From an uncultured archaeon (GTDB taxonomy: Archaea; Asgardarchaeota; Thorarchaeia; Thorarchaeales; Thorarchaeaceae), in assembly GCA_964558645.1 (NCBI GenBank), contig CAZLEV010000019.1, forward strand, positions 1-49,895: 49,895 nucleotides of DNA, given 5' to 3'. Below the pieces are notes generated by a model, which did no database searches, was not told the origin of the DNA, and saw nothing but the letters and a program-made list of their open reading frames with translations. Positions 21,725 to 27,033 of this stretch are shown in pieces; position 1 is the stretch's first letter; each line of letters starts with the position of its first letter. The position numbers were made by a program, and so were the translations under genes.

Positions 21725-22139
21725 TCGGCTGCTATGTCACGATTATGAAACAATGAATGTTCAGAAGGATGCTCGTATAGGAGCGGGGTTCGCCAAGCCG
21801 AAGCCTGAAGAGGCGAACCTTCCGCATCCGTCAGGTCATATAGACCAGCCCAACTACAAGGCGCACGAAACAATTCAGTATGTGCAAGTTTGCAAGGGAA
21901 TCTTGCAAGGGGACCAATGCTAGAAACTCATTCTTTGGGACCAATATTGCGAATGCGAGTTTCCGACGGGGAAATTCGAACGCCCCATATTTGAGCTATC
22001 GAAGTGCGGAACTCGAAACGAATTCGGAACCGCATCATTCGCAGTACAGTCATTCTATATGAATCTTGTTAGCTCTCAGATACAGGAGAAACACTACATC
22101 TCACCCATCCGAATTCAGATGGAGCCAGCTAAAGGACGA
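21725..22139. other. Structured 415-nt intergenic element between convergent genes (possible ncRNA or repeat)
   Basis: Several stems (GGTTCGCC/GGCGAACC; ATTGCGAATG/CATTCGCAGT enclosing CGAGTTTCC/GGAAATTCG and TGCGG/CCGCA); short direct repeats TGCAAG x3 and GGGACCAAT x2. Confidence 0.35.
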
Positions 22140-24050: not shown

Positions 24051-24180
24051 TCACAATCACCGCAACAGCAAGAAACAAGGATGTCGCAGAGATGAAGGTT
24101 TTAGGTTCTTCGGTGAGAGGATTTCAGCTTAGAAAGGGACAGCTCCAAAATGTATATCTTTGAAGCAGTCACTATGTACT

Positions 24181-24424
24181 GATAGGACTTGAAGGGGACG
24201 TAGTGTCTGAATGTCAAAAAGGCGCCTTCTGGTGGAGAATCAATCTCCATCGAATGGAAAGTCGTTTGGATATGCTCTCTTTAAGAAGAAACTGCGAATC
24301 AAACTTGCCATCGCGTTCGTTCTTAACTTGGTCCCCTTGCAGAGTTATCCAATCCAGCGACCCGTATTTCAAGAGGCGCTTAATCGATGATGCTCATCAC
24401 GAAGACCAGCCGTCCTTGCGACGG
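24181..24424 (+). ncRNA. Candidate structured RNA (stand-alone ncRNA or riboswitch-like leader of a cobalamin uptake operon)
   Basis: Nine mutually compatible helices whose non-canonical pairs are G-U on the + strand; TATA-like TGTATAT at ~24151; B12-box-like GAAGACCAGCC at 24401-24411. Confidence 0.5.
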
Positions 24425-24486
24425 TAATCCTTAAATTCAGTATGATGAGGTTGTAGGTCAACCAATCCTACAACTGGTGGAAAAAT

Positions 24487-24972
24487 GTGAAGCCGACTTT
24501 AGCCATAGCCTTCCTCCTAGTACTGATTATCAGCATCCCAGTCACAGATGGGAAACGAAACCGATGTGCAGTGCCAGCAAGCGGGATCAACGTGAGTCTG
24601 AGACTTGACTTCGGCAATGGAACCTCGATTTCGTATGATAACTTAGAGGGCAGTACAGTACTGAACGTGACGGAGAGTGTCGTTGCTGTTGAGTATGAAT
24701 GGTATGGAGATCTGGTGTTTGTAACTTCAATTGCTAATGTATCGAATGATGCTGACCAAGGACTCTGGTGGCAGTATTGGGTCAACGGAGAGATTGGATC
24801 TGTTGCCGCCAATCAATATACAGTTGAGGATGGTGACCTCATAGAGTGGCGACTAGGCCCCACAGAAACGCCCCCAGCTGAAACGGACTGGTCACTCCTA
24901 ATTGGTTTGTCGATTGTTGGGGCGGCAGCGTTTCTGTTCCTGGTTCTTCTCCGACTATCATCCCGCGGGTAG
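24487..24972 (+). CDS. DUF4430 / transcobalamin C-terminal-like domain protein, membrane anchored
   Basis: LDFGNG, YGDLVFVTSIANV, WWQYWVNG....VAANQY.VEDGD.IEW; N-terminal signal and C-terminal TM. Confidence 0.85.
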   Translation: MKPTLAIAFLLVLIISIPVTDGKRNRCAVPASGINVSLRLDFGNGTSISYDNLEGSTVLNVTESVVAVEYEWYGDLVFVTSIANVSNDADQGLWWQYWVNGEIGSVAANQYTVEDGDLIEWRLGPTETPPAETDWSLLIGLSIVGAAAFLFLVLLRLSSRG

Positions 24973-24978
24973 ATTCCT

Positions 24979-25743
24979 TTGGTCGACAATGTCATGAAGC
25001 ACACTGCTATCTGTATGATACTTACGTTGATTACGATGTCATCTTCAGGGTTCTATCACGATTGCTTCACCCCCTCCGAAGAAGGAAACACCATCGTGAA
25101 GTGGAATGTTATTGATAGTCCTTTGACACCGGTTGCCTGGGGATGGTCAGGATCCGAGAAATGGCTGGTCCAGAGAGATTCGAGAATCACGTTTGAGGTG
25201 ATCGCAGTTGAGCCTGAAATCGCCGGTATCCTAACAATAGGGAACCTGACAATCAATGCGAACAACAGCCAGATCGGAACAGAGCTGGTGTTGGGTGTAT
25301 GGGGATTGACTCCTTTCTTCCCGGGGCTCATCATTCCCATTGATGATGAGGCAGTCGACCGACTGAACCAGACCGCTCAGGATAGCGCTTCGCGGAAGAG
25401 CGGAAACTACATGAATGGTTCGATGGCAGTCTATACTGAACAAGTAGTTTCTTCGAACGAAACCTATCACTGTGTCGTTTTCGACTACGTTCAAGATCCT
25501 GTGGGTTTTGGAGAGGCGCAGAAGACGGAATTGAAATATGATCTGGAGACCGGCGTTCTCGTTTTCTGCAACACATCTTACTCATTCGGAACTCCCTACA
25601 TACTGAGTCTTGAGATATCATCAATAGAACATCCTGCTGGCCTCAGTAGTCCTGATTCGCTGCTGCTCATGATGATAGCATTGAGTGGAACTGCGACAGT
25701 GATTGTCTTCACATTTGGTGTATGTTACTTCAAGAGAAGGTGA
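24979..25743 (+). CDS. Hypothetical secreted, C-terminally anchored protein
   Basis: Signal peptide, YDLETGVL motif common in archaeal surface beta proteins, C-terminal TM plus KRR. Confidence 0.75.
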   Translation: MVDNVMKHTAICMILTLITMSSSGFYHDCFTPSEEGNTIVKWNVIDSPLTPVAWGWSGSEKWLVQRDSRITFEVIAVEPEIAGILTIGNLTINANNSQIGTELVLGVWGLTPFFPGLIIPIDDEAVDRLNQTAQDSASRKSGNYMNGSMAVYTEQVVSSNETYHCVVFDYVQDPVGFGEAQKTELKYDLETGVLVFCNTSYSFGTPYILSLEISSIEHPAGLSSPDSLLLMMIALSGTATVIVFTFGVCYFKRR

Positions 25744-25759
25744 CCAGAGAGGTTTGGAT

Positions 25760-26353
25760 ATGAAAGAAGAAGACGGGGTTCACATCTCAAGGAGCAGATG
25801 GGTCGCCCTAGCTGCCACGATGACTGCACTTGCTCTAGTGGGCAATTACTCACTAGTAGCAATCCCCAGTGTCGAGTTCGGCACAGCAGTTCTCTTCGTA
25901 ACTGCGTACGTGTTCGGTCTCAGTATGGGAATCTGGTGTACTCTATTGATGTCATTGGTCTTTGGGATTATGAATCCCTGGGGCGCGTTCATTCCTCAGA
26001 TATGGGTATTCCAGGTCATCGGTTGGGCTTACGTTTGTGCAACTGCGGCTCTTCTAGGTAGGGATAGCCCAATCATTGAGGATAAGAGACCTGGTTTTCT
26101 CATGCTTGCAGCAGTGGGTGCGTTCATCACACTGGTCTTTGACCTTCTAACAAATGTAGGCTTTTCCATTGCATTTGGATATCCATACTTACTTTCGATT
26201 CTAACGGGACTCCCCTTCACTGCGGTGCATGTCTTCTCAAACGCCCTCATAATCCCTCTGGCAGTTCCCAGACTAGAACTGGCAATCAAGCGAGACCTTG
26301 GCGGAGCAATTTGGTTCGTTGAAGAAAATCTTCCTGATTCTACCATAGAATAA
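25760..26353 (+). CDS. ECF transporter S-component, CbrT (cobalamin)-like; start moved to ATG 25760
   Basis: About 6 TM helices, AxxxA motif in helix 1 (ALAATMTALA), IPSVE loop, FQVIGW, FDLLTN, H..SN. Confidence 0.78.
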   Translation: MKEEDGVHISRSRWVALAATMTALALVGNYSLVAIPSVEFGTAVLFVTAYVFGLSMGIWCTLLMSLVFGIMNPWGAFIPQIWVFQVIGWAYVCATAALLGRDSPIIEDKRPGFLMLAAVGAFITLVFDLLTNVGFSIAFGYPYLLSILTGLPFTAVHVFSNALIIPLAVPRLELAIKRDLGGAIWFVEENLPDSTIE

Positions 26354-26394
26354 AATACGCACAAAGCTCACAACAGAGTGGAGCTTGACCGGCA

Positions 26395-27033
26395 TTGCAC
26401 TGGAAAGACACTCTCATTGAACTCTCGGAGCCAGCAGACGGACGGGTGCCCCCCGTCTTTAAGCCGTATCATGCAGCTGTTGCGGTTATCATGATTGGTA
26501 GGCGTCAACCTCTTGGAAGATATGAGCTCTGTGAGAATATGTCAGTGGGTGAGGGCAGTGTGAGAACACTCCTGAAGAGGCTGTCAGAGAGCGGCCATAT
26601 CGCTCCAGAAGGGAGACAAGGACAGAAACTCACCAACACGGGTAAGGATCTCTTCGAAAGTATCATACAGGATATTCCTTTGGGACTCTTTCTTGATGTA
26701 GGCAAGCTGACTGTATTCGAGCATTCCTTTGCCAACATTGCGAGGGACAAGGCGGGATCAGTGACCGATGGAATAAGGCAAAGAGATGAGGCAATCATCC
26801 AAGGCGGAGCAGAAAGGGCAGGTGCAACGACACTCATCATGAAAAACGGGCTTCTCGTCATGCCGCCTGATGATTTCAATATACTCGGGACGTATCCCGA
26901 GGAGACCCTTCTCATAACTGAGAGCTTGAAACCACACGAGAACGATGCAATAGTGATAGGATCCGCAGACGATAGAAATCTTGCAAGGGAGGTTTCAATG
27001 GCTGCGGTCATGACTCTGTTTGAAGTTGATTGA
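26395..27033 (+). CDS. Archaeal wHTH protein (DUF4443-like)
   Basis: GRVPPVF, PLGRYELCENMSVGEGSVRTLLKRL, GIRQRDEAI..GA..GATT. Confidence 0.78.
   Translation: MHWKDTLIELSEPADGRVPPVFKPYHAAVAVIMIGRRQPLGRYELCENMSVGEGSVRTLLKRLSESGHIAPEGRQGQKLTNTGKDLFESIIQDIPLGLFLDVGKLTVFEHSFANIARDKAGSVTDGIRQRDEAIIQGGAERAGATTLIMKNGLLVMPPDDFNILGTYPEETLLITESLKPHENDAIVIGSADDRNLAREVSMAAVMTLFEVD

Follow-up and report, generated by a model that had tools for sequence, protein, structure and literature searches.

The 49,895-nt stretch of archaeal DNA analysed here (the window) contains, in the spacer between tmk and a DUF4430 operon, a stand-alone structured noncoding RNA of about 220 nt, which we term RNA A. From the comparison with its relatives we conclude, with a probability of roughly 0.9, that RNA A is a noncoding RNA gene with a promoter of its own, present as a single copy and dispensable. 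The original prediction for this region, the quoted sequence words of which were all found in place, had left open whether the element is a cobalamin riboswitch variant or a new stand-alone RNA; it is the second option that is supported, as RNA A has a promoter of its own and is not tied to the operon. RNA A is previously uncatalogued and belongs to no Rfam family. Rfam gave no gathering-level match in the window and none up to E 10 around RNA A, and a sub-threshold CRISPR-DR10 match, obtained with loose Rfam thresholds in the window and 14 homologs, falls on a variable hairpin. No paper on RNA A was found in the literature searched. The positions of all features are collected in Table 1.

Table 1. 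Features of the RNA A locus and of RNA B, with positions in the window
Feature	Positions	Strand	Basis
RNA A promoter, A-rich BRE-like stretch and TATA box (TATA 24152-24159)	24146-24159	+	start site predicted
RNA A, stand-alone structured noncoding RNA	24181-24405	+	covariance-model matches, covariation, strand test; ends predicted
5' G-rich leader (AGGAC, then AAGGGGAC); can pair as pseudoknot with GTCCCCTT (24331-24338)	24184-24199	+	all copies
Outer stem (24209-24216 paired to 24388-24395; 24220-24227 paired to 24374-24381)	24209-24395	+	three-genome genus alignment
Conserved inner stem with 3-nt bulge, 24254-24271 with 24352-24365	24254-24365	+	helices 1 and 2
C-rich strand, CTCTCTT in the window, CCCTCCC or CTTCCC in other genera	24274-24282	+	alignment
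Conserved core: CTGCGA/TTGCAG helix, TGC/GCG hairpin, single-stranded TTCGTTC, near-invariant GGTCCCCTTGCAGAGTT (24330-24346)	24290-24346	+	invariant columns
Promoter of the DUF4430 operon, distinct from that of RNA A: BRE-like stretch, TATA (24429-24436)	24421-24436	+	30 loci compared
Palindrome (consensus TAGGATAGG-N4-CCTATCCTA) across the predicted start site, a putative DNA operator	24450-24474	.	sequence conservation; binding predicted
Operon: DUF4430 protein, membrane protein, ECF S-component-like protein, DUF4443/PH0730-like winged-helix protein	24487-27033	+	Pfam; PDB 2p8t
RNA B, related stand-alone structured RNA (TATA about 22055-22064)	21780-22030	-	profile matches, shared words, stem changes

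Occurrence and promoter of RNA A

A core covariance model matched 27 of 86 Thorarchaeota-family genomes, with a single copy in each and always at the same locus. The carriers belong to six genera, and ten other genera of the family had no match to the model among the 86 genomes. Weak model matches at C1:347020, C7:36959 and in G063, which might have been taken for extra copies, all lie inside coding regions. Likewise, no multiple copies, varied sites or transposase/TnpB neighbours were met that would characterize RNA A as a mobile element or TnpB guide. When the covariance model was applied to 112 Asgard genomes outside the order, RNA A was not found in other families; we do not call it absent there, because the sister-family copy described below itself escaped the models. 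When 185,579 species genomes were scanned for the 17-nt core, archaeal matches came only from contigs of this family, mostly labelled Thorarchaeota; there were scattered bacterial matches as well, which we read as chance. Five metagenome matches represent the same locus, and none was obtained in viral contigs.

An orthologue of the DUF4430 gene is present in 76 of the 86 family genomes. In some of these, the gene is separated from tmk by about 270 nt of additional spacer, which contains the related element, and in 50 genomes DUF4430 is kept without RNA A. On a poorly resolved tree of the longin-wHTH protein, the presence of RNA A needs 2 to 5 gains or losses, and the copy in G009 (C1:93576-93671, L177) is a decaying gene, the 5' half and the promoter of which have been replaced by other sequence. 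For these two reasons RNA A looks ancestral and dispensable.

The original prediction had placed a TATA-like box upstream of the RNA, and this box is real and conserved: in all 24 copies checked it lies 29-41 nt ahead of the G-rich motif at the 5' end, with an A-rich stretch before it, and it is missing from the short spacers of genomes that have no RNA A. Six copies are not located in front of DUF4430. RNA A precedes DUF4443 alone in G008, G023 and G065, and it is followed by a PAS kinase gene in G010, by a peptide-binding protein gene in G094 and, in the case of the probable copy in G037, by a convergent gene. On the other side of the RNA A promoter, at 24099-24114, the motif TTTTAGRTKCTTCGGT before tmk is kept in most family genomes and probably represents the minus-strand promoter of tmk.

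Fold of RNA A and a related RNA nearby

The proposal that the region encodes a functional structured RNA gains strong comparative support. When the homologs were compared, both conservation and covariation were present: 91.5% of cells are paired in 20 homologs (36-41% in slid controls), and 15 of the 28 pairs carry two-sided changes, which 0 of 500 shuffles reach; these homologs are kin and not independent, and the two-sided changes arise in several genera. Our model R1 has helix 4 one column out of register, and model R2 is sequence-only. The assignment to the plus strand likewise agrees with the alignment, in which Watson-Crick-majority columns hold 24 G-U against 4 A-C pairs and the consensus energy of -18.3 versus -11.8 favours that strand. 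An RNA from the opposite strand was ruled out by the G-U/A-C counts and the promoter position. Folding energy alone proves little for 24181-24486, which is slightly better than its shuffles (z -1.87) but equalled by 5 of 100 of them, and the reverse strand scores z -1.69. RNA A proper has a z of -2.2, with a mean of -2.0 over 19 homologs.

The alignment shows a long covarying stem that closes a core with two pyrimidine-rich strands, one of the CCCUCCC type and GGUCCCCU. In the inner stem (helices 1 and 2) two-sided changes occur in 10 of 14 pairs, and 96-97% of cells are paired. This stem corresponds in part to the long arm proposed earlier, of which GG-AAA-GTCG/CGAC-CC is retained (97% paired), as is the GGAT helix, albeit in register with ATCC at 24352-24355 and not with TATCCA. 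The outer stem varies in sequence across genera, and other genera have an equivalent stem of different sequence. Other proposed pairings fared less well. AGGCGCCT/AGGCGCTT, the TGGTGGAGA hairpin and TTAAGAA/TTCTTAA are conserved at the genus level only, whereas GGGGACG/CGTCCTT, put forward as the main helix, and GATGA/TCATC are not kept even within the genus.

Inside the stem the elements follow in the order C-rich strand, CUGCGA/UUGCAG, hairpin, UUCGUUC, optional hairpin and GGUCCCCUUGCAGAGUU, the last being almost invariant among homologs. CUGCGA/UUGCAG is 98% paired and shows no covariation, and we therefore treat it as a candidate helix; the small core hairpin is 94% paired and has a variable loop. 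The C-rich strand is conserved in the alignment; its predicted probability of being unpaired is 0.6 on average, only 0.3 in the genus of the window, and 0.46 on average for the second strand. The G-rich 5' end can pair with GGUCCCCUU in every copy, with a mean of 8.3 bp versus 5.2 bp for shuffled leaders, a lenient control given that the leaders were picked by their G-rich motif. Matching flank changes are seen in G016, G008 and genus g3, and the AAGGGGAC/GTCCCCTT pairing reaches 76% on the raw alignment. This pairing had been described as the alternative state of a switch; the pairing is conserved, but the 3' helix CCGTC/GACGG that it would free is not kept even within the genus.

A second RNA, RNA B, is encoded 2.4 kb from RNA A, between a longin-wHTH gene and a longin-Arf GTPase gene. 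Its profile matched 34 of 37 family genomes, and genus g2 was added by eye; outside the order there was no match in 112 Asgard genomes, where RNA B is again 'not found' rather than 'absent'. The stem of RNA B carries matched changes (GAAACTC/GAGTTTC, GAACTC/GAGTTC, GAAATCTC/GAGATTC), and its most invariant word, GGUCCC, is present twice (three times in genus g9), often in loops. RNA B resembles RNA A in the long closing stem, the C-rich strand, the AACU strand with its GAGUU partner, the words GGUCCC(CUUGCA) and ACUUGCG, and the kind of promoter. It differs from RNA A in being near-universal and in having two GGUCCC units, a 3' hairpin and no 5' G-rich leader. The genome holds exactly two copies of the 12-mer GGTCCCCTTGCA, one in RNA A and the other in RNA B, at 21904-21915 on the minus strand. 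In sense direction the two RNAs share ten conserved 5-mers (1.9 expected) and two conserved 6-mers (0.2 expected), these words being overlapping. Judging from the promoters of both RNAs and the G-U pattern, the two transcripts carry these words in identical form. Common descent of RNA A and RNA B is likely but not proven, because in genome-wide searches neither profile recovers the other RNA, the best cross-match, at selected loci, having an E of 0.05.

One sister-family genome, G037, has a GC-rich island at the syntenic place (contig C34, L320:895-1110, minus strand) with a folding z of -3.2. The island, followed by the convergent gene mentioned above and in a genome without DUF4443, shows the same bulged stem, two C-rich repeats and the word CCCUCCCA, followed by GCGUUCGU and then GGUCCCCU; all three together appear in 0 of 20,000 shuffles, the words having been chosen after being seen. 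RNA B was not found at its usual place in G037. The models gave no match on the island, which we therefore regard as a probable rather than a certain distant homolog of RNA A.

Several known RNAs were considered as identities of RNA A. RNase P RNA and SRP RNA are likewise large, stand-alone and structured with long stems, but the true genes lie elsewhere in the genome, at C4:209083-209421 (RF00373, 154 bits) and C6:184495-184807 (RF01857, 102 bits), and neither model scores at RNA A, in keeping with the earlier remark that motifs of both are missing. There is what we take to be a word resemblance to U6 snRNA, mainly in RNA B; among the matches to RF00026 up to E 10 in five genomes, however, neither RNA appears. 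A tRNA complement or T-box was rejected, since none of the tRNAs has GGGACCA at its end and RNA A does not conserve the U ahead of GGUCCC, and so was a telomerase-like template for GUUC repeats, as the genome has no such tandem repeats. The 5' acceptor strand of the tRNA-Sec of G000, GGCCCCCU, resembles GGUCCCCU, probably by chance.

The DUF4430 operon and the cobalamin riboswitch reading

DUF4430 resembles the C-terminus of transcobalamins (PMC4350170), and the operon is a putative corrinoid (vitamin B12) uptake operon with its regulator. Its TATA-like box, which the original prediction had pointed out as a caveat, is real and conserved and belongs to the promoter of the operon: in nearly all of the 30 loci, with and without RNA A, it stands about 25 nt before the palindrome at near-constant spacing. 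The sequence of the palindrome is conserved in genomes with and without RNA A. It had been read as an RNA hairpin, but because the predicted start site falls inside it, it is most likely a DNA operator and not part of RNA A. Where the operon is split, the palindrome is kept at two places, ahead of DUF4430 and ahead of the gene for the DUF4443 winged-helix protein, which suggests that the DUF4443 protein regulates its own expression through this element. The DUF4443/PH0730-like gene (26395-27033), likely to encode the regulator, is found in 190 of 251 Asgard genomes; no paper on the protein was found in the literature searched.

These observations bear on the reading of RNA A as a cobalamin (corrinoid) riboswitch variant, i.e. 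a long leader controlling the DUF4430-ECF operon. RNA A is comparable to cobalamin riboswitches (RF00174; class II RF01689) in size and in its position before a putative B12 uptake operon. Most copies are on the same strand as DUF4430 or the gene for the operon's regulator and immediately precede it, no clear terminator was seen between RNA A and the operon in a bacterial-type scan, and the downstream genes are plausibly corrinoid-related. On the other hand, none of the cobalamin models scores at RNA A: RF00174 gave no match there at E<=1, and at E<=10 there was none with RF01689 in five genomes or with the whole of Rfam. Neither the T-loop hairpin P4 nor an L5-L13 kissing loop was found in RNA A, and the GUGANAAAUCGG segment that recalls a T-loop pairs with a distant strand, with two-sided changes. 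G002, a member of the same genus, has lost the B12-box-like GAAGACCAGCC, which is also missing in other genera; the B12-box-like words of RNA A are a chance occurrence in this one genome. The switch helix is not conserved either, and a second promoter and a putative operator lie between the RNA, with its own promoter, and the gene. Moreover, RNA A is independent of the operon: unrelated genes follow in G010 and G094, the probable copy in G037 is followed by a convergent gene in a genome without DUF4443, and the operon runs without RNA A in 50 genomes. We therefore regard a riboswitch as very improbable. One false archaeal riboswitch candidate is thereby removed, and a putative protein regulator (DUF4443, with a palindromic operator) is indicated for the putative B12 operon.

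Candidate functions of RNA A

Tentatively, we propose that RNA A is a small RNA that works in trans by base pairing. The C-rich strands would serve as seeds on G-rich ribosome-binding sites and block initiation, as RsaE and LhrC do in Firmicutes, while the 5' G-rich end would fold back and mask the second C-rich strand; RNA B may be an older-style sibling with three C-rich strands. This proposal is based on the TATA box that every copy checked has to itself and the independence from the downstream gene, and on the C-rich strands, which recur two or three times in either of the two RNAs and likewise in the copy of the sister family. G-rich words are enriched before the start codons of this genome (GGAGG 118 vs 17, GGGAG 51 vs 10, GGGGA 28 vs 7, AGGGG 33 vs 12), and the C-rich strand is predicted to bind a consensus ribosome-binding site with -5 to -11 kcal/mol. 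In the genus of the window, however, this strand binds least strongly (-5.0) and is predicted to be mostly paired, and the words that would match the most invariant word perfectly, GGGAC and GGACC, show no enrichment at ribosome-binding sites.

It is important to note that the 17-nt near-invariant core, the pseudoknot and the bulged stem exceed the needs of a seed-type small RNA, and would fit a protein-binding or catalytic fold equally well. RNA A might thus be a protein-binding scaffold or sponge, in which proteins would bind repeatedly at GGUCCC and at the C- and U-rich strands and RNAs A and B would form one type of RNP. U-rich single strands could suit Sm-like proteins, which is one reason for this reading, and it is also consistent with the repetition of GGUCCC in RNA B, often in loops and as the most invariant word, and with the 3-nt stem bulge, which is kept even in the sister family. 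However, no partner gene travels with RNA A, the neighbours of which differ, and Rfam revealed no protein-binding motif of a known family. We rate a scaffold as only slightly less likely than a base-pairing small RNA. A compact catalytic or ligand-binding RNA (a new ribozyme or trans-acting aptamer), the 5' strand of which closes a pseudoknot stacked on CUGCGA/UUGCAG, would explain the invariant core nucleotides and the pseudoknot geometry. We consider this unlikely, in view of the core helix without covariation, the missing likeness to known ribozymes, and RNA B, which has the core words but no conserved strand to close the pseudoknot.

Two further readings involve other RNAs as partners. RNA A could be a partner or decoy of RNA B, with two 5' G-rich motifs that pair with the GGUCCC loops of RNA B. 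The 8-bp complement is indeed present in trans as well as in cis, and in genus g3 an AUCCCC in RNA B accompanies GGGGAU in most RNA A leaders, although this is one lineage event and G099 keeps GGGGAC. Since the GAGAAC variants of the first motif (G094, G095, G028) are uncompensated in RNA B, and since in the sister family an A-like RNA occurs in a genome that lacks RNA B at the usual place, such pairing seems improbable. Hardly credible is a guide or chaperone for rRNA maturation (U3-like or a modification guide). GGUCCCCUUG can pair with a stretch of 16S rRNA and CUUGC with 16S helix 5, and CCCCGUC of RNA B matches the pre-16S trailer. Yet antisense matches of the conserved words of RNA A to rRNA are at chance level (43 vs 43.3; 8 vs 9.2), 16S changes in G010 and G021 are uncompensated, genus g2 alters the word of RNA B while the trailer is unchanged, no C/D or H/ACA match was obtained, and the alignment shows no conserved boxes.

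Some features of the rRNA genes were recorded on the side. CCTTGC, a word common to pre-16S leaders and RNAs A and B, lies 25-30 nt before the 16S 5' end (L263-L290), is kept in all pre-16S leaders seen and could pair with GCAAG in 16S helix 5, and GACGGGG is kept in most 16S 3' trailers (L263-L290). The 16S rRNA gene of G000 (C10:124412-126689, L147) is 2278 nt long and apparently carries five insertions; one contains a long reading frame resembling that of a homing endonuclease, and the other four are short and hairpin-like, the last being common to several relatives.

More speculatively, RNAs A and B could be the first known representatives of a novel class of large RNAs in Asgard archaea, an RNP core or ribozyme with a housekeeping role and with no counterpart in known bacterial, archaeal or eukaryotic families. 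In such a class RNA B would be the near-universal form and RNA A a switchable paralog, the 5' end of which masks the shared GGUCCC. We see this as a rather unlikely extension. In the literature searched, which omitted most subscription journals, no described Asgard noncoding RNA families were found beyond rRNA, tRNA, RNase P, SRP and SECIS. The two related RNAs provide a covariation-supported family with defined promoters, an invariant core and natural presence/absence variants, and therefore make post-transcriptional control testable in a lineage close to eukaryotes.

Returning to the base-pairing small RNA proposed above, RsaE exposes unpaired UCCC seeds (PMC2790875), and LhrC has redundant CU-rich sites and multicopy sibling sRNAs (PMC4132741). 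No Rfam match indicates sequence homology of RNA A with either. RNA A shares with them the stand-alone gene, several C-rich strands that could pair with G-rich ribosome-binding sites, and sibling copies in one genome; in RNA A these strands are predicted to be unpaired in part. It differs from them in being archaeal and about twice as long, in its long closing stem and its 5' fold-back, and in that its targets are putative. The comparison is therefore meant as an analogy of how RNA A may work.
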